Assembly (NCBI GenBank): GCA_965248835.1 | Contig: CBDFLJ010000001.1 | Coordinates: forward strand, 96,001-160,000 | Source of the DNA: Alphaproteobacteria bacterium | Lineage (GTDB): Bacteria > Pseudomonadota > Alphaproteobacteria > MPNO01 | Length of the DNA stretch: 64,000 nt | Reading direction: 5' to 3' | In this document: positions 542 through 40,474 of the stretch, piece after piece | How the letters are laid out: each line of letters opens with the position of its first letter | Position numbering within the stretch: the first letter of the stretch is position 1 | The notes under the pieces: generated by a model | Told to the model about the DNA's origin: nothing | The model's database searches: none | The model's input: only the letters and a program-made list of their open reading frames with translations | Translations under genes and position numbers: made by a program

Positions 542-1114
542 TCAGATGTCGCGACCGCGAAGCTTGTCGCGCAGCGCGCGGATATGGGAGTCCGCTCCGG
601 CCATGTTGGGATGGATCTCGAGTGCGCGGTCGAAGGCGGCGAGCGCGCTTTCCTCCTCCTCCAACGCCAGGTGCACCAGGCCGAGCCCGGACAGCGCCCC
701 GAAATGGCGCGGCTCGAGCGCGAGCGTCCGCTCGATGTCGGCCTTGGAGTCCGCGAAGCGGCCCATCAGGTAGTAGAGCGTCGCCCGCTTGTTCCAGCCC
801 TCGGCGAAGTCCGGCGCGCGCTTGACGATCGCATCGAAGGCGATCAGCGCCCGGGCAAAATCGCGCCCGGCCATCGCGTGCAGACCGACCGCCATGATGC
901 GGTCGATCTCCTCGGCGCCGGAGAGGTGCCAGATCGCCCAGATAGCCTGCTCCGGCTCGACCGCCGCTTCCGCGCTGGGCGCGGCCTTGAGGCGATCGAA
1001 CAGGTCCGGCAGGCGCGGATCGTTCTGGGCCGCAAGACCGATGGTCGCGAAGCTCAGCGTCGCCGCGGTGGCGATCCACGAGAACACGCGTTTCAAGGGG
1101 TCATCCCCGTCCAT
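542..1114 (-). CDS. Tetratricopeptide repeat protein, probably exported
   Basis: TPR-like PDFAEGWNKRATLYYLMG and LEPRHFGALSGLG; hydrophobic signal-like N-terminus; start chosen at ATG 1114, overlapping the glcF stop. Confidence 0.8.
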   Translation of the reverse strand: MDGDDPLKRVFSWIATAATLSFATIGLAAQNDPRLPDLFDRLKAAPSAEAAVEPEQAIWAIWHLSGAEEIDRIMAVGLHAMAGRDFARALIAFDAIVKRAPDFAEGWNKRATLYYLMGRFADSKADIERTLALEPRHFGALSGLGLVHLALEEEESALAAFDRALEIHPNMAGADSHIRALRDKLRGRDI

Positions 1115-2411
1115 CGTCCGTCTCCGCCAATTCGACCGGGCGCGGCCCGCCGTCGGCCCAATCGAGCAGCGCCACAGTATGGACCACCGGGAGCCTGGTC
1201 GCCTTGGCAATCTGGGACATGCAGCCGATATTGCCTGCCGCGATCACGTCGGGGGCCAGCGCCTCGAGATGGCCGGCCTTGCGCGCCCCGAGCGCATCGG
1301 CGAGCGCCGGCTGCAAAATGTTATAGGTCCCGGCCGAGCCGCAGCACAGATGGCCTTCCTGCGGCAGGACAACCTCGAACCCGGCACGGCGCAGCAGGTC
1401 CACCGGCGCGGCGTGGATCTTCTGGCCATGCTGCAAGGCGCATGCCGAATGGTAGGCCACCTTGATCCCGCGCGGCGGCGAGTCCGATCGCGGAACGCCG
1501 ATCCGGACCAGGAATTCGCTGATGTCGCAGGCAAGGTCCGAGATCCGTGCGGCGTCCCGCGCCGAATCCCGGTGATCGCGGAACAGGTGAGCGTAGTCGC
1601 GGACCATCACGCCGCAGCCCGAGGCGTTGACGACCACGGCGTCGAGTCCGGCGCCGTCGATCTCAGCCCGCCAGGCCGTGAGGTTGGCCCGCGCGGCGGC
1701 AAGCGCGCCGGCGTGGTCACCCAGATGGTGGGCGATCGCGCCGCAACAGCCGGCGCCGCGGGCCAGCACGACCTCACAGCCGTTGCGGGTCAGCAGACCG
1801 ATGGTCGCGGCGTTGATCCCGGCGTCCATCACCTGTTGGACGCATCCGGCGAGCAGCGCCACCCGGTAGCGCCGCACACCGGCCGCGCGGTGCACCTCGC
1901 CGGCCGAAGATACCGGGCTGCCGCGCGCGCCGCGCGGGGCGAGCCGGGCCATGCGGCCCAGCGCGCCAGGGAAGCGCCGGGCCAGCGGGCCGGCGAGCCT
2001 GGCCAGCCCCAGCGCCGCCCGGAACCGGCGCGGCGAGGGCAGGATCGCCGCCAGCGCACGGCGCAGCACGCGCTCCGCCACCGGCCGGCGGAAGGTTTCC
2101 TCGATCCGCCGGCGGGCGAGGTCGACCAGATGCATGTAGTTAACGCCCGACGGGCAGGTCGTCATGCAGGACAGGCAGGACAGGCAACGGTCGATATGGC
2201 CGACAACCTTTCGGGTCGGCGCAGCCCCGGTCTCCAGAATTTCCTTCATCAGGTAAATGCGCCCGCGCGGGCTGTCGAGCTCGTCGCCGAGCAGCACGTA
2301 TGTCGGACACGTCGCTTGGCAGAACCCGCAATGGACACATGCCCGCAGGATCGATTCCGCATCGGCGGTATCGGGATCGGCAAGCTGCGCGGCGGTGAAA
2401 CGGGTCTGCAT
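1101..2411 (-). CDS. glcF: Glycolate oxidase iron-sulfur subunit
   Basis: MQTRF start, CVHCGFCQATCPT and CLSCLSCMTTCP ferredoxin motifs, two CCG domains; downstream of glcDE. Confidence 0.95.
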   Translation of the reverse strand: MQTRFTAAQLADPDTADAESILRACVHCGFCQATCPTYVLLGDELDSPRGRIYLMKEILETGAAPTRKVVGHIDRCLSCLSCMTTCPSGVNYMHLVDLARRRIEETFRRPVAERVLRRALAAILPSPRRFRAALGLARLAGPLARRFPGALGRMARLAPRGARGSPVSSAGEVHRAAGVRRYRVALLAGCVQQVMDAGINAATIGLLTRNGCEVVLARGAGCCGAIAHHLGDHAGALAAARANLTAWRAEIDGAGLDAVVVNASGCGVMVRDYAHLFRDHRDSARDAARISDLACDISEFLVRIGVPRSDSPPRGIKVAYHSACALQHGQKIHAAPVDLLRRAGFEVVLPQEGHLCCGSAGTYNILQPALADALGARKAGHLEALAPDVIAAGNIGCMSQIAKATRLPVVHTVALLDWADGGPRPVELAETDDGRG

Positions 2412-2419
2412 CGGGCCTC

Positions 2420-3642
2420 TCAAATCCCGTCATACATACGGCCGGGGTTTAGGATCGCCTTGGGGTCGAAGGCCTCCTTGATACGCGCGCTGAGTGCGGC
2501 GCGGCCGGCCGGCTGCGGGTGGAAGACCGGAACCGCCCGACGCGCGCTTCGGGCGCGCGGATCAGGCTGGCATGGCCGCCGGCGCGGTCGACCGCATCCC
2601 GAACCGCCGGCGCGCCGGCCGCCTCTGTATCGCCCGCCAGCGCCAGCCAGACCAGCCCGCCGCCCCAGTCATAGAACGCCTCGGCGGGCACACTGCTGCG
2701 GATCGCCGCGACGGTCGCCGCACCCTCGGAAGGCGGCACCGACAGCCGCCAGACCAGCATGTCGGAGGGAGAAGCGAAATACGCGACCCCACCGACCTCG
2801 CGCCACAGCGCGGCGGAGTTGCGACCGTGCAGCTCATCGACGTGATGCCCGGGCTCGAACAGCGCGCGCAGCGCCTCGCAGCGGACCAGCACCGACGGCT
2901 CCGGCCCCTCGATCCTGAGCGCGGTGACCGCCCCACCCAGCCCCCTCACCCGCTCGATCGAGGACGCCGCGGCGATGGATGCGGGCAGGTGCGCGGCGGC
3001 GGAGACGTCGTGCTGTCCGGACAGCGCGCGGGACAGCGCGGCGGTGCCCGCCTTGTCATCGAGCCCGCCGATCAGGACGGTACGCAGCTTCTCGGCTGCC
3101 GGCAGCACCTTGACGGTGATCTCGGTCATCACGGCCAGCGTGCCGTAGGAACCGGCCATAAGCTTGGGCAGGTCGTAGCCGGTGACGTTCTTGACCACCC
3201 GCCCACCGGACTTGAAGATTTCGGCCCGCCCGCTGACCGCCTTCACGCCCAGGAAATGATCGCGCACGGCACCGGCCTTGGGCCGGCGCGGTCCCGACAA
3301 ATTGGTTGCGACCACCCCGCCCAGCGTCGCGCCATCGGCCGCACCGCCCAGCAGCGGTCCGAGATCGGGCGGCTCGAAGGCCAAGCACTGGCCGTGCTGG
3401 GCAAGCCGGTCGGTGATCTCCCGCAGGCTGGTGCCGGGCGCCGCCGTGAGCACCAGCTCCTCGGGCTCGTAAAGCGAAATTCCGGCAACCCCCGCCAGGT
3501 CGAGCACCGCATCGGCTGGGCCGGGCCGACCGAGTCCGCGCTTGGTGCCGCCGGAGACCACATCGAGCGGCCGTCCCGCCGACAGCGCCCAGGCGACCGC
3601 CTCGCGAACCTCGTCCTCGGTGGTCGGCCGCAGCACCTCCAC
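2420..3642 (-). CDS. glcE: Glycolate oxidase FAD-binding subunit, with a frameshift near 2540
   Basis: YEPEELVLT and GGRVVKNVTGYDLPKLM motifs; the canonical C-terminus (VPVFHPQP...KEAFDPKAILNPGRMY) is in another frame, ending at TGA 2420-2422. Confidence 0.9.
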
Positions 3643-3649
3643 GGCGCGC

Positions 3650-5137
3650 TCAGAACCGCGGCAGGTCGGGAAAGCGCGTCTCGCCCCGATGGACGTGGAC
3701 CCGGCCGAGTTCGGCGCAGCGGTGCAGCACGGGAAAGACCTTGCCGGGGTTGAGCAGCAGCGCCGGATCGAAGGCGCATTTCAGGCGCTGCTGTTGCTTG
3801 AGGTCGTCCTCGGAGAACATCGTGCCCATCAGGTCGCGCTTTTCCACGCCGACGCCATGCTCGCCGGTGAGCACGCCGCCGACCTCGACGCACAACTTCA
3901 GGATCGCCTCGCCGAACGCCTCGGCCCTGTCCAGCTCGCCCGGACGGTTCGCGTCATAGAGGATCAGGGGATGGAGGTTGCCGTCGCCGGCGTGAAAGAC
4001 GTTGGCGACCCGCAGACCGAAGGTCTCCGACATCTCGGCCATCCGGGACAGGACCTGCGGCAGGCGGTGGCGCGGGATGGTGCCGTCCATGCAGTAGTAA
4101 TCGGGCGAGATCCGCCCGACGGCGGGGAAGGCCGACTTGCGGCCGGCCCAGAACCGGACCCGCTCGTCCTCGTTCTCGCTGATCCGGAGCGAGGTCGCGC
4201 CATGCGCCCGCGCGAGGGCCTGGACCCGCTCGACCAGATGCTCGACCTCGGCGTCCGGACCGTCGAGCTCGACGATCAGCAGTGCGGCCGCATCGCGTGG
4301 ATAGCCGGCGGCGACGAAGTCCTCCGCGGCGTTGATCGCCAGACCGTCCATCATCTCCATGCCGCCGGGAATGATGCCGGCCCCGATCACCGCGGCCACG
4401 CAATTGCCGGCCGCTTCGCTGGACGGGAAGCCGATCAGAAGCGCGCGCGCCGACGGCACCTTGGGCAGGATGCGCACCGTGATCTCGGTGATCACCCCGA
4501 GCAGGCCTTCCGAGCCGGTGATCACGCCCAACAGATCGTAGCCTTCCGAATCCAGGTGCCGGCCGCCGATCCGCACGACCTCGCCGTCCATCAGCACGAT
4601 TTCGAGCCCGAGCACGTTGTTGGTGGTCAGTCCGTATTTGAGGCAATGCACGCCGCCGGCGTTCTCCGCGACGTTGCCGCCGATCGAGCACGCGATCTGG
4701 CTGGAGGGATCGGGCGCGTAGTAGAAGCCCGCCCCGTCGACCGCCTGGCTGATCGCGAGGTTGGTCACGCCGGGCTGGACGACCGCGCAGCGGTTGGCGT
4801 AGTCGATCTCCAGCACGCGGTTGAACTTGCCGAGCCCGACCAGCACCCCGTCGGCCAGCGGCAGCGCGCCGCCGGACAGCGAGGTCCCCGACCCGCGCGG
4901 CACGACCTTGATTCCCTGCGTGTGGCAATATCCCAGGATCGCGGTGACCTGGTCCACCGTCTCCGGCAGCACGGCGACCATGGGCGGCTGGCGATAGGCG
5001 GTCAGGCCGTCGCTCTCGTAAGCCCGCAGCGATGGCCCGTCCTCGATCACGCCCTCGCCCGGGACGATCGCGCGCAATGCACGCACGATCTCAGCGCGGC
5101 GCGCGATCACGCCGGCATCGGGTTCTGGCATCTTCAT
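3650..5137 (-). CDS. glcD: Glycolate oxidase subunit GlcD (FAD-linked oxidase)
   Basis: PRGSGTSLSGG, YAPDPSSQIACSIGGNVAENAGG, HAGDGNLHP and GEHGVG motifs. Confidence 0.95.
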   Translation of the reverse strand: MKMPEPDAGVIARRAEIVRALRAIVPGEGVIEDGPSLRAYESDGLTAYRQPPMVAVLPETVDQVTAILGYCHTQGIKVVPRGSGTSLSGGALPLADGVLVGLGKFNRVLEIDYANRCAVVQPGVTNLAISQAVDGAGFYYAPDPSSQIACSIGGNVAENAGGVHCLKYGLTTNNVLGLEIVLMDGEVVRIGGRHLDSEGYDLLGVITGSEGLLGVITEITVRILPKVPSARALLIGFPSSEAAGNCVAAVIGAGIIPGGMEMMDGLAINAAEDFVAAGYPRDAAALLIVELDGPDAEVEHLVERVQALARAHGATSLRISENEDERVRFWAGRKSAFPAVGRISPDYYCMDGTIPRHRLPQVLSRMAEMSETFGLRVANVFHAGDGNLHPLILYDANRPGELDRAEAFGEAILKLCVEVGGVLTGEHGVGVEKRDLMGTMFSEDDLKQQQRLKCAFDPALLLNPGKVFPVLHRCAELGRVHVHRGETRFPDLPRF

Positions 5138-5601: not shown

Positions 5602-6240
5602 ATGCAGCTCTACACGTTTTTCAGATCATCGGCGGCGTACCGCATGCGCATCGCCCTCAACCTCAAGGGGCTCGCCTACGAGCCGGTCGCGGTCAGCCTG
5701 CCCAGGATGGAGCACCGCGAGCCGGAATTCGCGGCGGTCAATCCCCAGCGCCTGGTGCCCGCGCTGGTCGACGGCCCGGTCACGCTGATCCAATCGGTCG
5801 CGATGATGGAGTATCTCGAAGAGACCCATCCCGAGCCGCCGCTGCTTCCGGCCGACCCCGTCGAGCGGGCCTATGTCCGGGCGCTCACCCAGGTTATCGC
5901 CTGCGACATCCACCCGCTGAACAATGTCCGGGTCCTGATATACCTGAAGGATCAGCTCGATCACGACGAACAGACGCGCAACCGGTGGTACGCCCATTGG
6001 ATTGCGGAGGGGTTCGCCGCCCTGGAAGGACTGCTGCAAAGCCAGGGCAAAGCCGGCCGCTTCTGCCACGGCGACCGGGTCAGCATGGCCGATGTCTGCC
6101 TGGTGCCCCAGGTCTTCAATGCCAAACGATTCGAGTGCCCGACCGATCCTTACCCCACCGTGATGCGCATCTTCGAGGCGTGCCAGGCGCTGGAAGCCTT
6201 CACCCAGGCCGCGCCGGCGCGCCAACCCGATGCGACCTAA
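5602..6240 (+). CDS. maiA: Maleylacetoacetate isomerase (zeta-class GST)
   Basis: MQLYTFFRSSAAYRMRIALNLKGL, NPQRLVPAL and ACDIHPLNN motifs; GGAGG RBS. Confidence 0.92.
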   Translation: MQLYTFFRSSAAYRMRIALNLKGLAYEPVAVSLPRMEHREPEFAAVNPQRLVPALVDGPVTLIQSVAMMEYLEETHPEPPLLPADPVERAYVRALTQVIACDIHPLNNVRVLIYLKDQLDHDEQTRNRWYAHWIAEGFAALEGLLQSQGKAGRFCHGDRVSMADVCLVPQVFNAKRFECPTDPYPTVMRIFEACQALEAFTQAAPARQPDAT

Positions 6241-6266
6241 GGCATGCTGCAAGCGGTGAGGCGGCG

Positions 6267-7625
6267 ATGCGGACGGCTTTCACCGCCGGGCAGCTCGCAG
6301 TGCCGGCAATCGCGGATGCGGACCGGATTCTGAAGGACTGCGTCCATTACGGGTTCTGCATCGCGGTCTGCCCGACCTATGTGCTGCTCGGCGACGAGCT
6401 GGACGCGCCGCGCGGGCGCATAGACCTGATCCGCGCGATGCTGGAGTCCGGCGCCCCGCCGCCGGCGCGCACGGTGGGCTATATCGACCGGTGCCTGTCA
6501 TGCAACGCCTGCATGACGACGTGTGCGGCCAGCGTCGATTACATGCATCTTGCCGACATCGCCCGCGCCTACATCGAAGACACCTACCGGCGGCCCGTGT
6601 TCGACCGGCTGTTCCGCTGGCTCATCGCGCGGACCGTCCCGGACGCCGGGATATTCCGGGCCGCGGTGCGCCTGGCCCGCTTCGCCGGCCCGGCCCGGTG
6701 GCTGCTCCCGGCCCGGCTCGCCAATCTTCTGGCGCTGGCACCGCGGGACCTGCCGCCGTCCGGCGAGCTGGTGGCGGCCGGCCTCTATCCCGCGGCCGGC
6801 GCCACGCGGAAACGGGTGCTGCTGCTCGCGGGCTGCGTCCAGAAGGCGCTGGCACCGCGGATCAACCGCGCGAGCATCAGCGTGTTGACCCGTCACGGCT
6901 GCGAGGTCGTCGTCGCCGGCGAGGCGGCGTGTTGCGGCGCATTCACCCTGCACATGGGGCGCCAGGCCCAGGCCAAGGCCAGTGCGCGGGCGACGATCGA
7001 GGCCTGGCACGAAATCCTCGAACGCGGCCGCATCGACGCGGTGGTCGTCAATGCTTCGGGCTGCGGCACGACGGTCAAGGACTACGGCCGGATCTTCGCC
7101 CACGACGCGGACATCGTGGACAAGGCCCGGCGCATCGCCGGGATGACGCTCGACATCAGCGAGCTCCTCAGCGAGCTCGAGCTCACCCCGCCGAAAGCCG
7201 CCATCCCGCTCGCGGTCGCCTATCACGATGCCTGCTCGCTCCAACACGCCCAGAAGGTGCGCCTTGGCCCGCGCCAGCTACTGCGGGCGGCGGGTTTCGT
7301 GGTCCGCGACGTGCCAGAGGGGCATTTCTGCTGCGGCTCGGCCGGAGCCTACAACATGCTGCAGCCGGCCATCGCGCGTGCACTGGGCGAGCGCAAGGCC
7401 GCGCATATCGAGAGCACCGGCGCCGCGGTCCTGGCCGCGGGCAACCTGGGCTGCCTCACCCAGCTCGAGCTCTATACCGGCCTGCCGGCGCTGCACACGG
7501 TCGAGCTGCTCGATTGGGCCACCGGCGGTCCGATGCCGGCCGCGCTCGACGGCGTTGCGCTTCCTGCGGCGGCGGCGGGCGCACAAATATCGGCGCCACC
7601 GGCTGCGGGCGCGGGGATATGGTAG
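6267..7625 (+). CDS. glcF: Second GlcF-like iron-sulfur subunit
   Basis: Full-length paralog of 1101-2411; the first ferredoxin motif reads CVHYGFCIAVCP. Confidence 0.85.
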   Translation: MRTAFTAGQLAVPAIADADRILKDCVHYGFCIAVCPTYVLLGDELDAPRGRIDLIRAMLESGAPPPARTVGYIDRCLSCNACMTTCAASVDYMHLADIARAYIEDTYRRPVFDRLFRWLIARTVPDAGIFRAAVRLARFAGPARWLLPARLANLLALAPRDLPPSGELVAAGLYPAAGATRKRVLLLAGCVQKALAPRINRASISVLTRHGCEVVVAGEAACCGAFTLHMGRQAQAKASARATIEAWHEILERGRIDAVVVNASGCGTTVKDYGRIFAHDADIVDKARRIAGMTLDISELLSELELTPPKAAIPLAVAYHDACSLQHAQKVRLGPRQLLRAAGFVVRDVPEGHFCCGSAGAYNMLQPAIARALGERKAAHIESTGAAVLAAGNLGCLTQLELYTGLPALHTVELLDWATGGPMPAALDGVALPAAAAGAQISAPPAAGAGIW

Positions 7626-7641: not shown

Positions 7642-8703
7642 TCAAGACGAAGCGGCCTTCTGTTCCTCGCCGTGGAGCCGGCGGATCGTCCGGCGCATCT
7701 GGAGGAGCGGCTCGTCGGCCGGCAGGGTGCCGCGCGGGTTGACGTCGGCGCCTTTGGTCTCGGGGTCGAGGTCTATGGCGCGCTGCTGGGCCTCGTAGAC
7801 CGCGAGGTCCTCCCGGATGACCATCTTCATCTGCTCGGTGAACAGCGCCTGCTTGTCCGGCGGCACCATCGTGCGGCGGCTGGCCACGGCCCAGAACTGA
7901 TGGGTCGTGGTCGCGGTCTCCGGCGTCATCGCGTGGTGGACGATGAAGCCCCAATGTCCCTGGCTCCGGGGGCGTTCTTCCTGGGCGAGCCCGTCGCCGG
8001 CCCTGGTCGAGCCGTTGCAGATGTCGATATAGGCCGGCGGCAGCCAGGTCGAGACCTGCCAGCGGTCGATCGGCCCGTCATAGGCGGCGTACTGGACGAA
8101 GGCGCTGGCCGGCGCGATGGCCGGCATCCAGCGCGTGACCCGGACGTGTTCGTCCGCCGTCTCGGTGATCAGATCGGCCGATTCCGCGACCGCCCGGTTG
8201 CCGGTCGTCGAGGAATGGACGTAGGACAGGTGCGACAGGTCCAAGAGGTTGTCGAGCACCAGGCGGTAGCCGCCCTTGACCCGCGCCTGGCCGGTGACCG
8301 AGAACCAGTCCGGGTCGGCGATGCGCGCGTGATAGTCCGGCACGTCGGCCGGATCGGCGCGTTCGGGATCGCCCATCCAGATGAACACCCAGCGGTCGCG
8401 TTCAATCACCGGATAGCGGCGCACGCGCGCCCAGCCCGGCACGTCCGCCTGGCCCGGAACATGAGTGCACGCGCCCTGGCAATCGAAGACCAGCCCGTGA
8501 TAGCCGCACTCGATACTGTCTTCGACGAGGCGGCCTTCGGACAGCGGCAGGTTGCGGTGCGGACAGCGGTTCTCGAGCGCTACCGGCGTGCCGTCCTGCT
8601 TGCGGAACAGGACCACGGACTCGCCGAGCAGCACCAGACCGGTCATCGCGCGACCGAGATCCTCGCTCCAGGCCGCGACATACCAGTGGTTTCTCAGGAA
8701 CAT
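7642..8703 (-). CDS. Rieske non-heme iron oxygenase alpha subunit (VanA-like O/N-demethylase family)
   Basis: MFLRNHWY start, Rieske CPHR...CGYHG, mononuclear Fe site DNLLDLSHLSYVH. Confidence 0.92.
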   Translation of the reverse strand: MFLRNHWYVAAWSEDLGRAMTGLVLLGESVVLFRKQDGTPVALENRCPHRNLPLSEGRLVEDSIECGYHGLVFDCQGACTHVPGQADVPGWARVRRYPVIERDRWVFIWMGDPERADPADVPDYHARIADPDWFSVTGQARVKGGYRLVLDNLLDLSHLSYVHSSTTGNRAVAESADLITETADEHVRVTRWMPAIAPASAFVQYAAYDGPIDRWQVSTWLPPAYIDICNGSTRAGDGLAQEERPRSQGHWGFIVHHAMTPETATTTHQFWAVASRRTMVPPDKQALFTEQMKMVIREDLAVYEAQQRAIDLDPETKGADVNPRGTLPADEPLLQMRRTIRRLHGEEQKAASS

Positions 8704-8827
8704 CGTGACCTCCCTCCGGCGGCCGGACCGTATGGCACCGCCGGATCGGGTGTCAACACACACCGATTGATCCCCATGCCGCCAAGGGTCTAGTCTCGCC
8801 CCGACGACAAGCCGGCAAACGCAGGAG

Positions 8828-9208
8828 ATGACGATGTCACTGGTGGCACTGGCAACGAAGGGCAACTACTTCCACGTCTACGACTTCAGGGTGAAGCCGG
8901 GGCGCGGCGACGAGTTCATCGAGAAGTTCGACACGTTCGACTATTCCGATGACAACCCGATGCACAAATCGTCGGCGCAGGTCAAGGACGGCGTGCTGTG
9001 CCGCGACACCGAGGACCCCGACCATTTCTACCTGATCGGCGAATGGTCCGATATCGAGATCCACGCCAGGATCCGCCAGGAACTGGCCGGGATGGGGCTG
9101 GACTTCGTCACCCTGATCGAGGACCTCGACAAGGGTGCGTTCGTGCCGACCTATGCCGAGATCGTCTCGAGCACGCCGCAGAGCGTCCTGGACGCCGCCG
9201 CGCAGTAG
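8828..9208 (+). CDS. Antibiotic-biosynthesis-monooxygenase (ABM)-like small protein
   Basis: FRVKPGRGDEF...DPDHFYLIGEWSD pattern; AGGAG RBS. Confidence 0.7.
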   Translation: MTMSLVALATKGNYFHVYDFRVKPGRGDEFIEKFDTFDYSDDNPMHKSSAQVKDGVLCRDTEDPDHFYLIGEWSDIEIHARIRQELAGMGLDFVTLIEDLDKGAFVPTYAEIVSSTPQSVLDAAAQ

Positions 9209-9267
9209 AGACCCGAGCACCGGGCCGGCGGTCCCCCGTGCAGCGGCCCACAGTAAGGACGGCAGCC

Positions 9268-10701
9268 ATGGCCAGGTCACGCATCGACATCCCGCCGGCA
9301 CCGGAGCCGCGCGAGGACCGCAACTTCGTCCTCGACAAGGACCTGCGCGGCCATTTGGAAACCCACACCGACATCGTGACCGTGGTGCGAAAGCCGGTCA
9401 GCATCGCGCATATCGGCGCGCTGTCGGCGAAGTCGGAACGGCCGATCCTGTTCGAGAACATCATCGAGAAGCCGGGCTTCCGGGTGCTCGACATCATGCT
9501 CAAGCACCGCCCCCTCCAGGCGCGCGCGCTGGGGGTGGCGGAAAAGGACTATCTGAAGACCCTGGCCTTCCGGCTGCGCCAGCCGCCCAGGCCGCACACC
9601 TATGTCGATACCGGGCCGGTCAAGGAGGTCATCCTGACCGGCGCCGACATCGACCTCCGCGCCCTGCCGATCGCGCAACATTCGACCGCCGCCCCGGGAC
9701 CGCAAATCGGCTGCATGAACATCCTCAAAGACCCCGAGACCGGGTTCTACAACGCGATGCACGCGCTGACGACACCGACCGGGCCGGACACCGCCGTCAG
9801 TCTGTTCATCACCCCGCACAGCACGCAGATCATCCGCAAATACATCGATATGGGCCTGGCGGAGATGCCGATCGCGTATGTCATCGGCACCCCGCCAGCC
9901 TACGAGATCATGACGAATTTTTCCGGTCTGCACATGGATTCCTGGGGCGAGGTGGACATGTTCGGCACCATCATGGACCAGGATATCGAGATGGTGCGGG
10001 CGGAGACCGTGGACCTCTACGTCCCCGCCAACGCGGAGATCGTCATCGAGGGCATCGTCAAGGTCAAAAACATGGTCGATGCCGACGGCGGGCCGAACCC
10101 GCTGATGTATTCGATCCCGCGGATGATCCCGCAGCCGGTGGTCAACATCACCGCGATCACCATGCGGGCCGACAGGCCGATCTACCGCAACTTCCAGACC
10201 ACGCCGGAGACCGACCACCAGGTGATCCCGCGGCTGTGCCACGAGGCGGTGCTCTACAACCGGCTGACCGAGATGGGGGTCCGGGTCAAGGACGTGCGGT
10301 TCCCGACCTGGGGCGGGGCGATGTCCTGCATCCTGCAGACCGAGGGCATCGCGCGCGAGGGGCTGATGACCGATGCGCTGCTCATGATGATGAGCTGCCC
10401 GTGGAACAACGCCAAGCTGTCGGTGGCGATCTCCGAGGATACCGACATCGACGACCCGGGCGCGGTCTATCACGCGATGGCCACGCGCTGCGATCCGGAG
10501 CTCGATGCCGTGCGCATCAAGCGCTCGCGCGGCTCGGCATGGGACCCCTCGGCGCGCCCGATCGCGGGCGAGGTGATCCACCGAGTGGTCGGAAAGCTCG
10601 GCCTGGATGCGACCATCAAGGACCGCCACGATCCCACCGACTTCGAATACGCCTGGCCGATCGGCTGGGACGATGTCCGGCTCGAAGACGTCATCGATTG
10701 A
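9268..10701 (+). CDS. UbiD family (prFMN-type) decarboxylase-like protein with atypical active site
   Basis: DLRGHL, ILFENI, GPVKEVILTGADIDL, VPANAEIVIEG, EDTDIDD...AMATR and KLGLDAT motifs. Confidence 0.85.
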   Translation: MARSRIDIPPAPEPREDRNFVLDKDLRGHLETHTDIVTVVRKPVSIAHIGALSAKSERPILFENIIEKPGFRVLDIMLKHRPLQARALGVAEKDYLKTLAFRLRQPPRPHTYVDTGPVKEVILTGADIDLRALPIAQHSTAAPGPQIGCMNILKDPETGFYNAMHALTTPTGPDTAVSLFITPHSTQIIRKYIDMGLAEMPIAYVIGTPPAYEIMTNFSGLHMDSWGEVDMFGTIMDQDIEMVRAETVDLYVPANAEIVIEGIVKVKNMVDADGGPNPLMYSIPRMIPQPVVNITAITMRADRPIYRNFQTTPETDHQVIPRLCHEAVLYNRLTEMGVRVKDVRFPTWGGAMSCILQTEGIAREGLMTDALLMMMSCPWNNAKLSVAISEDTDIDDPGAVYHAMATRCDPELDAVRIKRSRGSAWDPSARPIAGEVIHRVVGKLGLDATIKDRHDPTDFEYAWPIGWDDVRLEDVID

Positions 10702-10710: not shown

Positions 10711-11208
10711 ATGCCGATCGGACGGCTCGCGGCGCTCCTGATCGCCTGTTTTCTTCCGGCCGGCGCCGGCGCCGATGAGGTCGGCTCGGTCGATACCGCC
10801 TTCAAGCTGCTCGGCGCCAACCACAAGATCGTCGTCGAGGCCTTCGACGATCCCAAGGTCGAGGGCGTGACCTGTTTCGTGTCGATGGCGCGAAAGGGCG
10901 GGATCTCGGGCAGCCTGGGCCTTGCCGAGGACACCTCCGATGCCTCGATCGCCTGCCGCCAGGTCGGGCCGATCCAGTTTGCCGCCCCGATCAGCGGCGC
11001 GCCCGGGGGCGAGCGCGTCTTCAAGGCCCGGCGGTCGGCGCTGTTCAAGCGGCTTCAGGTGATGCGGTTCCTCGACCATCGGCGCAACGCGCTGGTTTAT
11101 CTGGTGTTCAGCGACAAGTTGATCGACGGCTCGCCCAAGAACGCGGTCTCCGCGGTGGCCTTGATGCCGTGGGGCGACCAGCCGCCGGGCAAGCCGATCC
11201 TGCGCTAA
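10711..11208 (+). CDS. creA: CreA family protein
   Basis: Signal peptide; [32 protein letters not shown] and [10 protein letters not shown]. Confidence 0.92.
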
Positions 11209-11304
11209 GCCGGCTGCCCCCCTGACGGCAGCGGGCGGGCTCGGCTATTTTGCGCGCGGACTGTGAATTGGGAGAGGCGGGGTGCAACCGACCCGCGGAT
11301 CGAC

Positions 11305-13638
11305 ATGACGGCGAGGGTTCTCGGCCAGCCGGTCCCGCGCCTCGAAGACCCGGCGCTGCTGCGCGGCCGGGCGTGCTTCGTCGACGATCTGCATTTCTCC
11401 GACCTGCTGCACGGCTCGTTCGTGCGCAGCGGCGAGGCCCACGCGCGCCTGCGCGGGATCGACGCCGCCGAGGCGCTGGCCGCGCCGGGCGTCCAGGCGG
11501 TGCTGACGCTGGACGACATACGGCCGCACGTGACCAACGTGCGGATGCCGCTGGGCCAGCCCTCGGCCGCGATCCGCCATGCGCTCGACCCACCGATTCT
11601 GGCGGACGGCGAGGTCCGCTATGTCGGCGAGCCGGTGGCGCTAGTGATCGCCGATCACCCCTATCGCGCCGAGGACGCCGCGGGGTTGGTGGCGATCGAC
11701 TACGGCACCCTGCCGGCGGCGATCGATTGCCGCGATGCGCTCGCCCCCGGCGCGGCGCCGGCCCATGCGGGGCTGGCCGACAATCTCGTCGCTCGGCTCG
11801 ACATCGGCTACGGCGACTGCGAGGCGGCGTTCGCGCAGGCCGCCCATGTCGTCGGTGCGGCGATGCACCAGAACAAGGGGCTCGGCCACGCCATCGAATG
11901 CCGCGGCGTTCTGGCCCGGCCCGATCCGAATGACGGCAGGCTCACCGTCTGGTCCGGCACCCAGATGCCCCATCGCGGCCACGCGGTGCTGTGCGACTTG
12001 CTGGGCTGCGCAGAGGATGCGCTGCGGGTTGTCGCGCCCGACGTCGGCGGCGGGTTCGGGCCCAAGTTCGTCTTCTATGCCGAAGAGGCCGCGGTGGCGG
12101 TCGCCGCGCGGATTACCGCACGGCCGGTCAAGTGGATCGAGGATCGGCGCGAGCACTTCATCGCGACCACCCAGGAGCGGGACCAGTTCTGGGACATGGA
12201 GATGGCGCTGGATGCCGACGGACGAATGCTGGCGGTGCGCGGCAGCCTGATCCACGACCACGGCGCCTATACGCCCTACGGGGTGAACCTGCCCCACAAC
12301 GGGGCGACCAACCTGCTGGGCCCCTATGTGCTGCCCAACTTCTCGCTTCAGGTCTCGATCGCCGCCACCAACAAGGTGCCGGTCACCCCGGTGCGCGGCG
12401 CCGGGCGGCCGCAGGGCACGTTCGTCATGGAGCGGCTGCTCGACCGCGCCGCGGCCAGGCTCTGCATCGACCGGGCCGAAATCCGCCGGCGCAACCTGAT
12501 CCAGCCCGCCTCCATGCCCTATCCGATCCCGGTCAAGAACCGCGACGGCAAGTTCATGACCTATGACAGCGGCGATTATCCGGCCGCGCTTGCCATGGCG
12601 CTGGAAGCGGCCGGCTATGACGGCTTCGCCGCCCGCCAGGAAGCAGCCCGTGCAGACGGCAGGTTCATCGGCATCGGCATCGCCAACTATGTCGAGGGCA
12701 CCGGCCGCGGCCCGTTCGAGTCCGCCCGGGTCAAGATCGGCCCGTCCGGCCGCATCAGCGTTGCCACCGGCGCGACCAGCCAGGGCCAGGGGCTCAAGAC
12801 CGCGCTCGCCCAGGTCTGCGCCGAGGCGCTGGGCGTCGATGTCGCCGACGTCGGGGTCACCGCGGGCGATACCGATGCGGTGACCTTGGGGCTTGGCGCC
12901 TTCGCCAGCCGTCAGGCGGTCACCGCCGGATCCTCGGTCCACCTCGCGAGCATGGAACTGCGCGAAAAAGCGCTCACCGTCGCGGCTCAGGTCCTGGAGG
13001 CCGCGCGCGAGGACCTCGAAATCGTCGCCGGGCGGGTCAGGGTGTGCGGCGTGCCCGATCTGTCGATCAGCCTGGGCGAGATCTCCCGTGGGCTTGCCGG
13101 CCAGCCGGGCTTCGCCCTGCCGGGCGGGGTGGGGCCGGGGATGGAGGCGCTTGCGAGCTTCGAGCCGGAGACGGTCACCTTCTGCAACGGCTGCCACGTC
13201 GCCGAGGTCGAAATCGACATCGACACCGGCGCCGTCACCGTCGCGGCGTATACCGTGATCCACGATTGCGGCCGGATGATCAACCCGATGGTGGTCGAAG
13301 GCCAGATCGTCGGCGGGGCGGTCCACGGGCTGGGCAGCGCGCTGTTCGAGCGCATGGTCTTTGACCAAACGGGTCAGCCGCAGACCACCAATCTGGGCGA
13401 GTACGTGATGCCGAGCGCGCCCGAATGCCCGCGGCTGTGCATCGCGCACATGGAATCGCCGAGCCCGCTCAACCCACTGGGCGTCAAGGGCGCGGGCGAA
13501 GGCGGGGTGATCCCGGTGCCGGCCGCCATCGCCGCCGCGATCGAGGACGCGCTGGCGCCCTACGGCGTTGCCATCAACGACGTGCCCATGACGCCCGAAA
13601 GGCTGGTCCGACTGATCCGAAGCGCGCAGGACGCCTGA
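11305..13638 (+). CDS. Xanthine dehydrogenase family molybdopterin-binding large subunit (CoxL-like)
   Basis: RLEDPALLRG, VGGGFGPK, RGAGRPQG, QGQG and KGAGEGG motifs. Confidence 0.92.
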   Translation: MTARVLGQPVPRLEDPALLRGRACFVDDLHFSDLLHGSFVRSGEAHARLRGIDAAEALAAPGVQAVLTLDDIRPHVTNVRMPLGQPSAAIRHALDPPILADGEVRYVGEPVALVIADHPYRAEDAAGLVAIDYGTLPAAIDCRDALAPGAAPAHAGLADNLVARLDIGYGDCEAAFAQAAHVVGAAMHQNKGLGHAIECRGVLARPDPNDGRLTVWSGTQMPHRGHAVLCDLLGCAEDALRVVAPDVGGGFGPKFVFYAEEAAVAVAARITARPVKWIEDRREHFIATTQERDQFWDMEMALDADGRMLAVRGSLIHDHGAYTPYGVNLPHNGATNLLGPYVLPNFSLQVSIAATNKVPVTPVRGAGRPQGTFVMERLLDRAAARLCIDRAEIRRRNLIQPASMPYPIPVKNRDGKFMTYDSGDYPAALAMALEAAGYDGFAARQEAARADGRFIGIGIANYVEGTGRGPFESARVKIGPSGRISVATGATSQGQGLKTALAQVCAEALGVDVADVGVTAGDTDAVTLGLGAFASRQAVTAGSSVHLASMELREKALTVAAQVLEAAREDLEIVAGRVRVCGVPDLSISLGEISRGLAGQPGFALPGGVGPGMEALASFEPETVTFCNGCHVAEVEIDIDTGAVTVAAYTVIHDCGRMINPMVVEGQIVGGAVHGLGSALFERMVFDQTGQPQTTNLGEYVMPSAPECPRLCIAHMESPSPLNPLGVKGAGEGGVIPVPAAIAAAIEDALAPYGVAINDVPMTPERLVRLIRSAQDA

Positions 13639-17970: not shown

Positions 17971-19041
17971 TAGAGCACTTCAAGTTTACTTGGCCCCATA
18001 GCCGGCGTTGAGGAAGAAGTTTCGGCATTCGGTTGGATCGAACAGGTCGATTGCTTCGGCGATGGCTTGCCAGAGCGCCTCCTTGGATCGGGCGGCGGCC
18101 TTTCGGAGCAGCGCCTTGAGCTTGGCAAAGGCCTGTTCGATGGGGTTGAGCTCGGGTGAGTAGGCCGGCAGATAGAGCAGGAACGCGCCGCGCGCCTTGA
18201 TGGCCTGACGCACGCCCGCGACCTTGTGGGCCGACAGGTTGTCCATGACGACGACATCACCTGGCCGCAGGCAAGGCGCCAGGATCTGTTCGACGTAGGT
18301 TCTGAAGGCGTCGCCGTCCATGGCGCCGTCGAGCACCATGGGAGCGTGCAAGCCATCCAGGCGCAGCCCGGCGACGAAGGTGGTGGTCTTCCAGTGGCCC
18401 CAGGGCAGGGCGGCGTTCAGGCGTTGGCCGCGGGGACAGCGCCCGCGCAGCCGGGCCATGTTGGTCTTGGCTCCGGTCTCATCCACGAACACCAGCCGCT
18501 CCGGTCTCAGCCAGTGCTGCCAGCGGCGCCAGTGGCGGCGCTTAACGGCAATGTCGGGACGGTGATCATCCTCGATGGTCCGCGGCCGCCCCCTGTTCGA
18601 AGTTTTTTTAAAGCTGTAGTCCTCAGCGCCCTGAGCTGAGTGTCTCATTGATCGCCTGCAACGAGATCGCGACCGCCTTCTCGGCGGCCAGCCGGCCTTG
18701 CAGCTCCGCCAGCGTGATGTCCGGCTGCTCCCGCATGACCGCATGCAGCCAGTCCTCATGACCGGCAAGCTTGCGCTTGCGTCCGTCGCCCGGCTTGACC
18801 GGGGCGTAATCCCCGCTCCGCCGCCAACGCCGCACCAGCTTGATCACGCTCGACGCACTGACATCGAAACGCTCCGCCGTTGCCCGACACGATGCGCCGC
18901 TCGCCACCGCAGCCAACATCCGCCGACGCAGATCCAAGGAATGAGCATGGCCCATAGCGTGTTGCCACGGTCGCTAACCACAACATCTTGTGAAACTCCG
19001 AACCACAAACCTACGATTCCGCGCAAGCTTGAACCGCTCTA
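17971..19041 (-). mobile_element. IS630-family insertion sequence (two-ORF type, degenerate)
   Basis: Imperfect terminal IRs TAGAGCACTTCAAG / TAGAGCGGTTCAAG in CTAG context; HTH orfA plus DDE orfB. Confidence 0.9.
17986..18955 (-). pseudogene. IS630 transposase (orfA 18623-18955 HTH, orfB 17986-~18600 DDE), disrupted at the junction
   Basis: FVDETG, VMDNLSAHK and LPAYSPELNPIE motifs; premature stop after a CTCAG duplication just before the A7 frameshift run. Confidence 0.85.
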
Positions 19042-29608: not shown

Positions 29609-30795
29609 TAGTCACCCGAATCTAAAGTTGGTGGCATAAGTTTTGATCGACGCGGAGGCAGAAGCGTTTGACGGCGGCGAGGATGTCGTCGGCTGATTTG
29701 GTCCATTTGAAGGGCTTGGGGTCTTCGTTGTGTTTTTCGATGAAGGCGCGGATGTCGGCTTCGAGCTGCTTCGTCGAGGTATGAACGCCGCGTCGCAGTT
29801 GCTTGCGCGTCAATTCGGCGAACCAGCGCTCGACCTGGTTGATCCAGGAGGCCGAGGTCGGCGTGAAGTGGACATGATAGTGCGGCCGCCGCGCCAGCCA
29901 GGCTCTGATCGCGGCGGTCTTGTGGGTGGCGTAGTTGTCCATGACGATGTGGATGTCGAGATCCTCGGGGACGCGGGCGTCGATCTGCTTCAGAAAGTCG
30001 AGGAACTCCCTGGCCCGGTGGCGCCTGTAGCACTTGCCGATGACGAAGCCCGTGGCGACATCGAGGGCGGCGAACAGCGAGGTCGTCCCGTGCCGGACGT
30101 AATTGTACGTCCGCCGCTCGGCCATGCCCGGCATCATCGGCAACACCGGCTGTTCGCGGTCGAGGGCCTGGATCTGGCTCTTTTCATCGACACAGAGCAC
30201 CAGCGCGCGGTCCGGCGGCGACAGATAGAGCCCGACGATGTCGCGGACCTTGTCGACGAACAGCGGATCGCTCGACAGTTTGAAGGTCTGCGAGCGGTGC
30301 GGCTGCAACCCGAAGGCCGTCCAGATGCGCCGGATCGTCGTGTGCGACAGCCCGGTCTCCCGGGCCATCGAGCGGAGCGACCAATGGGTCGCATCCGCCG
30401 GCGTCGCGTTGAGCGTCCGTTCAATGACCTGTGCCACTTGATCATCCTCGATGGTCCGCGGCCGCCCCGGCCGAGGCTCATCCGACAGTCCGTCGATGCG
30501 GTCCTTCAGGAAGCGGCGGCGCCACTTGCCGACCGTGTGCTCGTGCACGCCGAGCTCGGCAGCGACCGCCTTGTTGGTCAGACCAGCCGCGCAACGCAGG
30601 ATCATGCGGCAGCGGTCCGACACCGCGCGCGCGATCTGGCGACGGCGGAGCTGACGCTCGAGATACGACCGTTCTGCATCGCTCAGAACCAAAGCCGCAA
30701 CCGGCCGGCCAACGCCACGCACCATCGCAAACACCTCCAAAGCCCAACGACGATGGCCATCATATAGTGCAATTTACTTCAGTTCCAGGTGACTA
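29609..30795 (-). mobile_element. IS630-family insertion sequence
   Basis: IRs TAGTCACCCGAATCTAAAGT / TAGTCACCTGGAACTGAAGT with CTAG at both ends. Confidence 0.93.
29622..30725 (-). CDS. IS630 transposase (intact, single ORF)
   Basis: CVDEKSQIQALDR, VMDNYATHK and HFTPTSASWINQVERWF motifs. Confidence 0.95.
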   Translation of the reverse strand: MVRGVGRPVAALVLSDAERSYLERQLRRRQIARAVSDRCRMILRCAAGLTNKAVAAELGVHEHTVGKWRRRFLKDRIDGLSDEPRPGRPRTIEDDQVAQVIERTLNATPADATHWSLRSMARETGLSHTTIRRIWTAFGLQPHRSQTFKLSSDPLFVDKVRDIVGLYLSPPDRALVLCVDEKSQIQALDREQPVLPMMPGMAERRTYNYVRHGTTSLFAALDVATGFVIGKCYRRHRAREFLDFLKQIDARVPEDLDIHIVMDNYATHKTAAIRAWLARRPHYHVHFTPTSASWINQVERWFAELTRKQLRRGVHTSTKQLEADIRAFIEKHNEDPKPFKWTKSADDILAAVKRFCLRVDQNLCHQL

Positions 30796-33400: not shown

Positions 33401-34342
33401 GAGCCCTTCCGGAAAGTTCTTGAATCGGAAGAATCGTTTGTGATTCTGTGCTGGGCATCCGGTTTACAGGAGGAAGCCCGATGTGGACTGCGGAACACCG
33501 CCGCGCGGCGGAGCGTCGCGGACTTCGCTATCCGAGTGATCTGACCGACGCCGAGTGGGCGCTGATCGCGCCAATGATCCCGCCTGCCAAGCGCGGCGGG
33601 CGCAAGCGCTCAGTCGACGTGCGCGAGGTTCTGAACGGCATCTTCACCGTGCTGTCCACGGGCTGCCAGTGGAATGCACTGCCCAAGGATCTGCCGCCGA
33701 AGTCGACGGTGTACGACTATTTCGATCTATGGGAGTGGGATGGCACGCTGGAGCGGATCCATCATGAACTCTACGTCGCGGTGCGCGATGAGGAAGGACG
33801 CGAAGCCAGCCCGTCGGCCGCGGTCATCGACAGCCAGAGCGCCAAGGCGGCGCAAAAAGGGGGGCGTCGATCGACGATCAAGGCTTCGATGCGGGCAAGA
33901 AGGTCACCGGTCGCAAGCGGCACATCATGGTCGACACGCTCGGCCTGATGCTGGGCATCGTGGTGCATTCCGGCGACGTTCAGGATCGCGACGGTGCCCA
34001 CGAGCTCTTGCGCCGCACCCGGCGACGGTTCCCATTCATCGAGGTGATCTACGCCGACGGCGGCTATCAGGGACCGAAGATGGCCGCGACTGTCGCCAAG
34101 ACCGGGGGGTGGCGGCTCGAGATCGTCAAGCGCAACGACGTGCCCCGCTTCGAGGTGCTGCCAAAGCGTTGGATTGTCGAACGCACCTTCGCCTGGATCA
34201 GCCGCAACAGGCGCCTCGCTCGCGACTTCGAACGTCACGTTCGATCCGTCGTCGCCTTCATCCGACTCGCCATGATCCGCATCATGCTGCGCAGACTCGC
34301 CGCAACCCACTCACCATAGATTCAAACTTTCCGGATCGGCTC
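33401..34342 (+). mobile_element. IS5-family (IS1031-type) element, copy 1
   Basis: 942 bp; IRs GAGCCCTTCCGGAAAGTT / AACTTTCCGGATCGGCTC; TTA on both sides. Confidence 0.95.
33481..34319 (+). CDS. IS5 transposase expressed through a -1 frameshift
   Basis: YPSDLTDAEW and VIDSQS in orfA; A5G6 run at ~33854-33864; orf[20 protein letters not shown] and [10 protein letters not shown]. Confidence 0.9.
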
Positions 34343-39873: not shown

Positions 39874-39887
39874 TCTGAGCCGTCGGA

Positions 39888-40462: not shown

Positions 40463-40474
40463 GGCGGCCGGCCG

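Follow-up and report, generated by a model that had tools for sequence, protein, structure and literature searches.

A clade of UbiD-fold proteins lacking the Glu-Arg-Glu network, represented by one gene of an alphaproteobacterial genome

Catalysis with prenylated flavin mononucleotide (prFMN) is now explained by one Glu-Arg-Glu network, to which acid-base chemistry, substrate or CO2 binding, and cofactor maturation are all assigned. In the UbiD family, according to the available text of two studies, prFMN lies next to this conserved E(D)-R-E network (PMC5818171; PMC8988006). A UbiD-fold protein without this network is encoded in a 64,000-nucleotide stretch of high-GC alphaproteobacterial DNA (G000:C1:96001-160000; GC content, 0.67), called the window throughout, whose 56 open reading frames (ORFs) were scanned with domain models. 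The original prediction described a noncanonical UbiD next to an ABM-type protein and a divergent Rieske oxygenase. It proposed a different chemistry or cofactor or a noncatalytic subunit, possibly with help from the ABM protein and with action on the product of the Rieske enzyme. The protein was found to belong to a conserved clade from which the catalytic second Glu of the network is absent throughout.

Fold, missing network and conservation

The UbiD scaffold was clear, as predicted. The protein passed the Pfam cutoffs for UbiD (PF01977; 99.2 versus 23.3 bits) and UbiD_C (PF20696; 58 versus 24.2 bits). Its AlphaFold2 model (pLDDT, 84.1; pTM, 0.85) had the three-domain UbiD architecture, and every Foldseek entry listed for it was a UbiD-family structure, with HmfF first (TM score, 0.79 to 0.87), followed by Fdc, AroY, phthaloyl-CoA decarboxylase (Pcd), and others. 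HmfF was also the best solved relative by sequence (6h6x; E value, 3.3e-36). The UbiD fold is regarded as certain on the basis of these domain scores and the predicted structure.

The three motifs that had been read by eye, NAMHAL, DGGPNPLMY and APGPQ, were all read exactly (Table 1). The protein was aligned with solved HmfF and Trichoderma atroviride Fdc, with 36 paralogs from its own genome, and with 29 distant relatives. In every alignment made, the family Arg fell on Leu167. For the loop corresponding to EGPFGE, three registers were obtained, with the first Glu on D271, A272 or D273 and the second Glu (Glu2) on P276, N277 or P278. The HmfF alignment placed NVSIHR over NAMHAL and EGPFGE over DADGGP, the T. 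atroviride Fdc alignment shifted the loop by two residues, and the MAFFT alignments with the own-genome paralogs placed Glu2 on P278 in one case and on N277 in another. Residues 262 to 313 contain no Glu at all, indicating that the loss of Glu is independent of the alignment register. The comparisons with solved structures, own paralogs and distant relatives thus all agreed that the Arg-Glu-Glu triad is absent; against Fdc this followed from the alignment, and the Foldseek comparison, which included Fdc and AroY, showed the common UbiD fold. Among the 37 full-length UbiD paralogs of the genome, 36 keep the Arg and the window protein alone lacks it. Glu2 is Glu in 34 of them and Asp in one, and it is absent from the remaining two, the window protein and the paralog at C2:871986-873467.

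Other active-site positions are retained. In the alignments with HmfF and Fdc, an Asn, a His and a Glu of those enzymes (N168, H191 and E233 in Fdc1) fall on N162, H184 and E228; we take them to be the ligands joining metal ions and flavin phosphate. The three residues of the window protein are presumed to be kept as ligands of the metal ions holding the flavin phosphate. N162 and E228 were invariant in an alignment of 30 sequences (the window protein and 29 metagenome relatives), and both were at least 90% conserved across relatives at 27 to 56% identity. The H184 position is occupied by His or Asp in the clade, as it is in canonical paralogs.

The clade was recovered from several collections. 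A protein database search gave 2,091 proteins at an E value of ≤1e-10 among 7,999 scored, and among the best 120 matches listed, identity was 58 to 100% over the full length, with sizes of 450 to 490 aa. A search of 185,579 species-representative genomes gave 219 candidate stretches, 204 of which encode relatives. From these, 79 loci, all from metagenome-assembled genomes (MAGs), were kept for neighborhood analysis, in which ORFs were called and clustered, and 78 genome relatives were aligned. The 79 loci come mostly from Alphaproteobacteria (Rhodospirillaceae, Xanthobacteraceae, Hyphomicrobiales and Defluviicoccus) and a few from Burkholderiales. The gene is also carried by 14 of 20 close relatives of the source genome, at 55 to 90% identity.

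Glu2 was absent from all 78 genome relatives and all 29 metagenome relatives. The Arg was absent from all 78 genome relatives, where the fifth residue after the Asn is L, G, M, Y or A, and from 27 of the 29 metagenome relatives. With the catalytic Glu gone throughout a whole conserved clade, an altered mechanism, as originally proposed, is a fair inference. New conserved residues accompany the loss. The 30 sequences share 96 invariant columns, the new polar motifs HxDxWGE and TDHQxxPRLCHEA included; T311, P313, T315, D316, H317, Q318, P321, R322, L323, C324, H325, E326 and A327 are all invariant in this set. In the 78 genome members, the HxDxWGE columns are kept without exception, the signature at residues 310 to 327 is conserved in all with few substitutions, which fall in its first three residues, and nearly all members keep P278, Y281 and P284. 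Of the 36 other own-genome paralogs, 35 lack the insertion before E228 that carries the first of these motifs; only C2:871986-873467 shares it.

A pseudogene or decayed paralog was considered and rejected; the frame is intact, its length matches that of the relatives (470 to 482 aa), the GC content at third codon positions (GC3) is 0.84, and conservation is high. Judged from the alignments, the window protein is a member of a tight, conserved clade under strong purifying selection. Full-text searches, whose coverage excluded the main UbiD review and most subscription papers, found no literature on a UbiD clade without the E-R-E network, and the clade is apparently both large and unstudied.

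The sister lineages suggest how the network was lost. In a FastTree phylogeny of the 37 paralogs and 24 clade members, the clade was nested inside the HmfF-like branch. Its sister in the genome, C2:871986-873467 (39% identity), keeps the Arg in NFSFTR and has DDGPGPSQ in place of EGPFGE. An exhaustive search of representatives clustered at 50% identity gave 2,133 matches at an E value of ≤0.001 and 78 at ≤1e-30, of which 29 full-length relatives were aligned. One of these (P0124; 56% identity) falls within the clade. Three others (P0126, P0132 and P0134; 38 to 43%) keep the Arg, have a D-G-P-x-P loop, and lack Glu2. Of the remaining full-length relatives, 18 have Glu at the Glu2 position, 2 have Asp and 3 have Asn. 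This gradient among the sister lineages indicates that the network was dismantled stepwise and that this branch tolerates variation at the acid-base position; as far as the sequences can tell, the Glu-Arg-Glu network has been lost in steps. The sister lineages (C2:871986-873467, P0126, P0132 and P0134) resemble the clade at 38 to 43% identity in the D-G-P-x-P loop and in an (S/T)DHQ motif, and C2:871986-873467 and P0132 also have the insertion before the metal-ligand Glu. Unlike the clade, they retain the Arg (NFSFTR, NTAIVR, NAMFPR) and do not have the complete PRLCHE signature; they are likewise uncharacterized.

Two further groups were seen among the distant relatives. P0142, P0148 and P0149 (32 to 34% identity) keep the Arg and EGPFG and have Asn at the catalytic second Glu. 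P0199 and P0201 (28% identity), which form a second, unrelated-looking group, have neither the Arg (NTFFSM, ATFQTM) nor EGPFGE (EPYLHLS, EPYLHQS) and carry a long insertion in the DGG-loop region.

The source genome (4.9 Mb) has 38 PF01977 matches, of which 37 are full length and several stand in tandem (e.g., C2:606046-608195 and C2:2501313-2507008). Among 20 relatives from the same order, 18 have 27 to 39 UbiD genes each and the other two have 9 each. On the contig of the window, the nearest other PF01977 match is at C1:452838, about 350 kb away.

Cofactor, proposed activity and alternatives

PF02441, the domain of UbiX, matched the genome only at C2:1889389-1889877, in a UbiX-sized frame, and at C1:1828295-1828804, in a 406-aa frame of CoaBC size. 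Both matches fall outside the window, in agreement with the original remark that the window contains no ubiX. In 9 of the 79 loci, UbiX adjoins the clade member, just upstream of it and in 8 cases on the same strand; the UbiX-linked members bear the same noncanonical motifs as the window protein. The UbiX representative that was scanned (locus L083) scored 265.2 bits against the NF004685 cutoff of 188. Because a true UbiX adjoins clade members at these loci, prFMN is likely to be used, and the different cofactor that had been suggested is less likely than prFMN.

In 6 of the 79 loci, a DUF2390/TIGR02444 protein (93.6 bits versus a cutoff of 48.3) is encoded between UbiX and the UbiD-like gene. 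The UbiX-linked operon continues with a CMD-like protein, MarR, DUF2848, Cupin_7, and two HpaB genes.

Across the 79 loci, what stands upstream of the UbiD-like gene varies greatly. Recurrent neighbors are CMD/AhpD-like proteins (49 loci), MarR (48), branched-chain-type ABC permeases (35), HpaB-type hydroxylases (14), OYE (13), EthD (12), DUF2848 (10), Cupin_7 (10), UbiX (9) and VanA-type Rieske oxygenases (8), which points to the uptake and degradation of aromatic acids. The CMD/AhpD-like protein, of about 213 aa and with a GCAYCTAH (CxxC...H) motif, is encoded directly downstream in all of its 49 loci, often overlapping the UbiD-like gene or within 0 to 20 nt of its stop. It scores weakly against CMD (21 to 26 bits) and reaches 61 to 66 bits against TIGR01926, a "peroxidase-related enzyme" model with a cutoff of 81.8. 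It is not found beside the window copy, nor in the nearest subclade of the window protein except at L014 and L016, and its only homologue elsewhere in the source genome is a weak one (E value, 3.8e-12). Full-text searches with most subscription papers outside their coverage found no literature linking UbiD to CMD/AhpD or DUF2390 partners. Where the Arg is absent, this CxxC neighbor of most clade members is a candidate aid to prFMN maturation.

The explanation that we favor, and put forward as tentative but quite conceivable, is that the protein is a catalytically active prFMN enzyme whose active site has been rewired, and that it performs a step of the (de)carboxylation type with a hydroxylated aromatic or heteroaromatic acid as substrate. 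The cofactor would be supplied by the single UbiX of the genome and bound by the UbiD-like protein. The acid-base Glu and its Arg and Glu partners would be replaced by clade-invariant His, Asp and Cys residues located in the HxDxWGE insertion (H222 and D224), in TDHQ (D316 and H317), and in PRLCHE (C324 and H325). On this view, these residues would point toward the flavin. The step would belong to an aerobic catabolic route, alongside oxygenases.

Several points weigh against this explanation. The window protein reaches only 130 bits against TIGR00148, the "UbiD family decarboxylase" model, whose curated cutoff is 244.85; all seven UbiD-type NCBIfam models score below their cutoffs for it, and the main-clade member at L083 likewise fails TIGR00148 (159.8 bits). 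The window and 70 of the 79 related loci have no UbiX, and the UbiX-linked loci all belong to one subclade (motif FYNSCHAGTY) with about three arrangements, that is, few independent events. The Arg position is still Arg, within NTMHPR, in two of the metagenome relatives (P0014, 71% identity, and P0015, 68%), indicating that the fixed loss in the clade is that of Glu2 and not that of the Arg. The confidence of the model is poorest in the loops bearing the new invariant residues, with pLDDT blocks of 53 to 74 and values below 50 for residues 316 to 321 (D316 to P321). A precedent comes from Aspergillus niger Fdc1. In the available text of its studies, Glu282 is the likely acid-base residue (PMC5818171; PMC8988006), only Glu-to-Asp changes in the network keep activity (PMC5818171), and in the R173A variant, oxidative maturation is severely impaired and a prFMN radical is trapped (PMC5818171; PMC8988006). 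Fdc1, taken as a guide, would predict that the window protein is inactive or cannot mature prFMN on its own. Purifying selection, the new invariant polar residues, the kept specificity His and metal ligands, the linkage to UbiX, and the catabolic operons stand against the precedent.

Among the alternatives, the best is a prFMN or flavin enzyme with a reaction other than decarboxylation, such as isomerization, hydration or dehydration, C-C or C-heteroatom chemistry, or a redox reaction, with the CxxC CMD/AhpD-like protein as a partner in most relatives. No member keeps the residue responsible for protonating the decarboxylated intermediate, a Cys-His pair and an HxD motif are newly invariant, the GCAYCTAH protein stands directly downstream in most loci, and neighboring lineages also differ at the Glu2 position, which is Asn in 3 and Asp in 2 of the 29 aligned relatives. 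We nevertheless consider this alternative unlikely. Full-text searches, outside whose coverage most subscription papers lie, found no UbiD-family enzyme that does not (de)carboxylate; the HpaB, Rieske, OYE, MarR and uptake contexts fit an ordinary decarboxylate-then-hydroxylate route equally well; and the CxxC partner is missing from the window and, apart from two loci, from the nearest subclade.

Somewhat less probable still is a UbiD scaffold that works without prFMN, either with a divalent metal bound by the His, Asp and Cys residues, comparable to the nonoxidative decarboxylases of the amidohydrolase family, or without any cofactor. The loss of the Arg and Glu2, the failed curated UbiD model, at least six new invariant residues of metal-ligand type, and the lack of an adjacent UbiX at most loci would all fit such a protein. 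Against it, the positions aligned with the flavin-site metal and phosphate ligands (N162 and E228) remain invariant, members of the same clade with the same motifs stand next to UbiX in 9 loci, and canonical UbiD genes are mostly not beside UbiX either, there being 37 full-length paralogs and one UbiX in the genome.

A noncatalytic protein, finally, could be a ligand binder or sensor, a carrier or store of prFMN serving the other UbiD paralogs (approximately 36), or a structural subunit within a hetero-oligomeric carboxylase. The missing triad is in line with such a role, since network variants of Fdc1 other than Glu-to-Asp lose activity in the data available from PMC5818171. The large numbers of UbiD genes in 18 of the 20 relatives could demand cofactor handling, and at one locus (L032), three UbiD-type genes, including a canonical one, stand in tandem. 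The noncatalytic subunit of the original prediction is nonetheless improbable. A second UbiD gene stands alongside in only 2 of the 79 loci (L032 and L034) and is lacking in the other 77. Members of the clade are found, too, in further alphaproteobacterial lineages and in MAGs of Burkholderiales, where they have their own catabolic operons. Its new invariant polar residues are concentrated in the active-site loops, the substrate-specificity His included, and 55 to 90% identity across families exceeds the needs of a mere scaffold.

More broadly, and with less confidence than for the prFMN enzyme that we favor, it is possible that a large, mostly alphaproteobacterial clade (about 200 species genomes and many more metagenome proteins) has dispensed with the Glu-Arg-Glu network, which is regarded as universal and essential in the family, and still uses prFMN. 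With a His/Asp/Cys site, it would follow a new route of (de)carboxylation or perform a new prFMN reaction, helped in most members by the CxxC CMD/AhpD-like protein as a redox or maturation partner. The window copy would be a partnerless member recruited into a block of Rieske, ABM and Mo-hydroxylase genes for an N-heteroaromatic or methoxy-aromatic acid. A natural clade that lacks the network and is sometimes adjacent to UbiX offers a ready test of which parts of the mechanism are indispensable. It could reveal a second catalytic solution or a new prFMN reaction, which would be of interest for C-H carboxylation biocatalysis. It also carries a warning for annotation; the relatives are automatically labeled "2,5-furandicarboxylate decarboxylase" or "UbiD family decarboxylase" and yet fail the defining motif.

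The locus and the ABM protein

The genes at the locus and the features referred to above are collected in Table 1.

Table 1. Positions of the genes and motifs at the locus, with related features elsewhere in the window and in related loci
Feature	Position	Strand	Remarks
VanA-type Rieske nonheme iron oxygenase, 354 aa from MFLRNHWY	7642..8706	-	Pfam Rieske 79 bits, VanA_C 123.2 bits
Divergent intergenic region between Rieske and ABM genes	8707..8833		GGAG at 8823-8826 ahead of likely ABM start
ABM-fold (dimeric alpha+beta barrel) protein, 124 aa	8834..9208 (ORF from 8828)	+	Starts at conserved Met
UbiD-fold protein, 477 aa	9268..10701	+	Without Glu-Arg-Glu network
APGPQ	9691..9705	+	Stands at usual DGGxY loop
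NAMHAL, residues 162-167	9751..9768	+	N162, kept Asn; L167 at family Arg position (A. niger Fdc1 Arg173)
HMDSWGE, residues 222-228	9931..9951	+	Clade-specific insertion with invariant H222, D224, W226, G227, directly before E228
VDADGGPNPLMYSIP, residues 270-284	10075..10119	+	Loop replacing canonical EGPFGE, contains DGGPNPLMY; P278, Y281, P284 invariant; no Glu
QTTPETDHQVIPRLCHEA, residues 310-327	10195..10248	+	Clade signature; H317 aligns with HmfF substrate-specificity His
CreA-family protein	10711..11208	+	Pfam CreA 187.9 bits; 9 nt downstream of UbiD-like gene
Mo-hydroxylase large subunit (xanthine dehydrogenase/CoxL type)	11263..13638	+	Pfam Ald_Xan_dh_C, MoCoBD_1, MoCoBD_2
glcDEF-like glycolate oxidase set	1101..5137	-
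Second GlcF-like CCG/4Fe-4S protein	5985..7625	+	Ends 17 nt from end of Rieske gene
Transposases (DDE_3, three; DDE_Tnp_1, one)	17986..18768; 29622..30740; 30853..31959; 33927..34319
TctCBA transporter	38881..41992
Second VanA-type Rieske oxygenase	43036..44133	-	VanA_C 141.7 bits
Amidohydro_3	44139..45839	+
CMD/AhpD-like gene, examples	L014:7380-7985; L036:7371-8018; L083:7405-8049		46 other loci in addition
UbiX-linked loci with DUF2390/TIGR02444 protein, examples	L083:4788-5894; L063:5044-5854; L075:4740-5874		Protein encoded between UbiX and UbiD-like gene

The UbiD-like gene is preceded by a ribosome-binding site (AAGGA at 9255-9259) and lies 59 nt after the ABM gene on the same strand. 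A longer ORF of 567 aa from 8998 was rejected as the true gene because of its overlap with the ABM gene and because no relative has a match to its first 90 residues. The CreA gene probably shares a transcript with the UbiD-like gene, and the Mo-hydroxylase gene starts 54 nt after the CreA gene on the same strand. Between 7400 and 14000, no match to a sigma-70-like promoter consensus was found, and three terminator-like sites were found where 2.2 were expected, all of them within genes. The GC contents of the ABM gene (0.62) and the UbiD-like gene (0.65) are somewhat below the 0.67 of the window. The block is flanked by glcDEF-like, GST, CCG/4Fe-4S protein, aldo-keto reductase and TRAP transporter genes.

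The Rieske ORF runs on to 8865, with the likely start at MFLRNHWY, and both of its ligand motifs, CPH...CGYH and DLSHLSYVH (D-x2-H-x4-H), are intact, as expected of a VanA-type (class IA) Rieske oxygenase. The oxygenase had been called divergent, which is true of its transcription; its domain scores are those of a protein that is not unusual in sequence. No VanB-type reductase partner was seen among the window ORFs, and no search was aimed at one outside the window. That the UbiD-like enzyme acts on the Rieske product, as also suggested, is at best hinted at by the recurrence of VanA-type Rieske genes near the clade, which stand directly upstream on the same strand in L014, L016, L054 and L071. 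Besides the same-genus locus L011, Rieske homologues are found in seven further loci at 32 to 44% identity.

The label "ABM-type" is correct at the level of the fold. The Pfam ABM score is marginal (24.5 versus a cutoff of 23.1 bits), and no single stretch passes; the AlphaFold2 model (pLDDT, 85.5), of the ferredoxin-like beta-alpha-beta fold, had 4zos, 4dn9, 3gz7, 9lmm and SnoaB, all ABM proteins, as top Foldseek matches (E values, 9e-5 to 1.5e-3). A profile search by sequence against the PDB gave nothing better than an E value of 0.99, and the Atlas agreed with the label, matching the protein to ABM clusters automatically named "putative quinol monooxygenase" (score, 0.97). Its likely start is Met3 of the ORF, at 8834, which is invariant in 11 orthologs. 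These orthologs are 59 to 90% identical, with NPMHKSxAQVxDGVLC nearly invariant.

An ABM homologue stands beside the UbiD-like gene in only 1 of the 79 loci, that of the same-genus relative (L011). This locus keeps the entire block, with identities of 84% for the Rieske oxygenase, 90% for ABM, 90% for the UbiD-like protein, 84% for CreA and 86% for the Mo-hydroxylase. In a sample of 400 other alphaproteobacterial genomes, ABM orthologs were found in 10 (57 to 74% identity). Their contexts were inspected in nine genomes (L102 to L110) over about 8 kb on either side, some cut at contig ends, and in none of the nine was a UbiD-like gene nearby. In one genome (G309), the ABM and UbiD-like orthologs are on separate contigs. 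A homologue of the Mo-hydroxylase large subunit of the window was present in seven of the nine contexts, directly downstream of ABM in L106, and was accompanied by CoxM/CoxS/CoxG-type subunits where neighboring ORFs were scanned. Ring-hydroxylating Rieske alpha and/or beta subunits were present in six and MarR in three. The conserved association of ABM is with a Rieske oxygenase and a Mo-hydroxylase, not with the UbiD-like enzyme, and the combination suggests N-heteroaromatic catabolism. Around the clade itself, Mo-hydroxylase genes are rare (2 of the 79 loci). What had been seen as a module of ABM, UbiD and Rieske genes is a mosaic specific to the genus and does not amount to a conserved system.

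A role of ABM as a dedicated helper of the UbiD-like enzyme, for example as an O2-dependent prFMN maturase compensating for the missing Arg, is very improbable, since the pairing is not conserved; it could draw on the 59-nt spacing and the retained pairing in the same genus, on accessory prFMN maturases or chaperones such as PhdC (PMC13040415) and LpdD (PMC10865409), and on the cofactor-free oxygenases among ABM proteins (e.g., SnoaB, by PDB entry titles), but neither PhdC, an HpaC-like flavin reductase (PMC13040415), nor LpdD is described as ABM-type in the text available from these sources. A looser link to dimeric alpha+beta barrel proteins in general was rejected as too weak; ABM (1 locus), EthD (12) and NIPSNAP (3) together occur in 14 of the 79 loci, belong to different families and stand at variable positions.

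The five genes form a lineage-specific block in this genus, with the Rieske gene on the minus strand and the ABM, UbiD-like, CreA and Mo-hydroxylase genes opposite to it. ABM belongs to the Rieske and Mo-hydroxylase module, and the UbiD-like and CreA genes stand between the ABM and Mo-hydroxylase genes.

Further observations were made in and around the block. No gene for an FAD or a [2Fe-2S] subunit adjoins the Mo-hydroxylase large subunit gene in the window, in contrast to the homologues beside ABM orthologs elsewhere. A single 972-aa frame, present in both L107 and L108, joins the Rieske alpha subunit to a Rieske ferredoxin and a pyridine-nucleotide-disulfide reductase. The glcDEF-like set is followed by the second GlcF-like gene on the opposite strand. 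The window contains the four transposase genes, and a GC dip at 32001-36000 (0.58 versus 0.67) suggests a mobile or recently acquired region downstream of the locus. The second VanA-type Rieske gene is divergent from the Amidohydro_3 gene, and the TctCBA transporter genes lie directly upstream of this pair.

Comparison with known systems

In Fdc1 of A. niger and T. atroviride, on which the mechanism of the UbiD family is modeled, the fold is the same (Foldseek E values, about 1e-33 to 1e-31; TM score, 0.72 to 0.79) and the flavin-phosphate ligand positions align with those of the window protein, at 20 to 24% identity. The difference lies in the network. Glu277-Arg173-Glu282 is needed in Fdc1 for efficient catalysis, and Arg173 is needed for maturation, according to the available text of PMC5818171; in the window protein, these positions are Asp or Ala, Leu, and Pro or Asn.

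Phenylphosphate carboxylase-type hetero-oligomers differ in gene arrangement, as no adjacent gene for a second UbiD-like subunit is present at the window and only two related loci have one.

Some UbiD enzymes need a separate protein to obtain mature prFMN, as described in the available text on the PhdC maturase (PMC13040415) and the LpdD chaperone (PMC10865409). By analogy, a UbiD-like protein without the Arg might need one as well. Homologues of PhdC or LpdD were not seen in the window, although no search was aimed at them. The recurrent neighbors of the clade are of other kinds, CMD/AhpD-like and DUF2390/TIGR02444 proteins, neither of which is encoded in the window.

XCDC (LA1_0150) of Cupriavidus sp. 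LA-1 is a xanthine-carboxylate decarboxylase using UbiX, K+ and Mn2+, and its pathway, an N-heterocycle route, includes a molybdenum dehydrogenase, in the part of the account available (PMC12391406). It resembles the window, where a Mo-hydroxylase is encoded two genes downstream, in this described context; the rarity of Mo-hydroxylases near other clade members is a difference.

HmfF, the 2,5-furandicarboxylate decarboxylase of Pelotomaculum thermopropionicum (6h6v, 6h6x), is the closest of the known systems. It has NVSIHR and EGPFGE where the window protein has NAMHAL and DADGGPNP, and the HxDxWGE insertion and the PRLCHE motif belong to the window protein. With 28 to 29% identity in the Foldseek alignment, and with no hmf or furan-pathway genes and no UbiX/HmfG among the 56 window ORFs, the two proteins are not taken to be orthologs, and the label "2,5-furandicarboxylate decarboxylase 1" on relatives is an automatic name. 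The likeness extends to the three-domain UbiD fold over about 465 columns and to the Asn, His and Glu aligned with the metal and phosphate ligands. His297 of HmfF, which is key to furan-type substrate specificity according to the available text of the HudA paper (PMC7976604), aligns with the invariant H317 of the window protein, and because this specificity His is kept, the substrate pocket of the clade may well lie in the same place.

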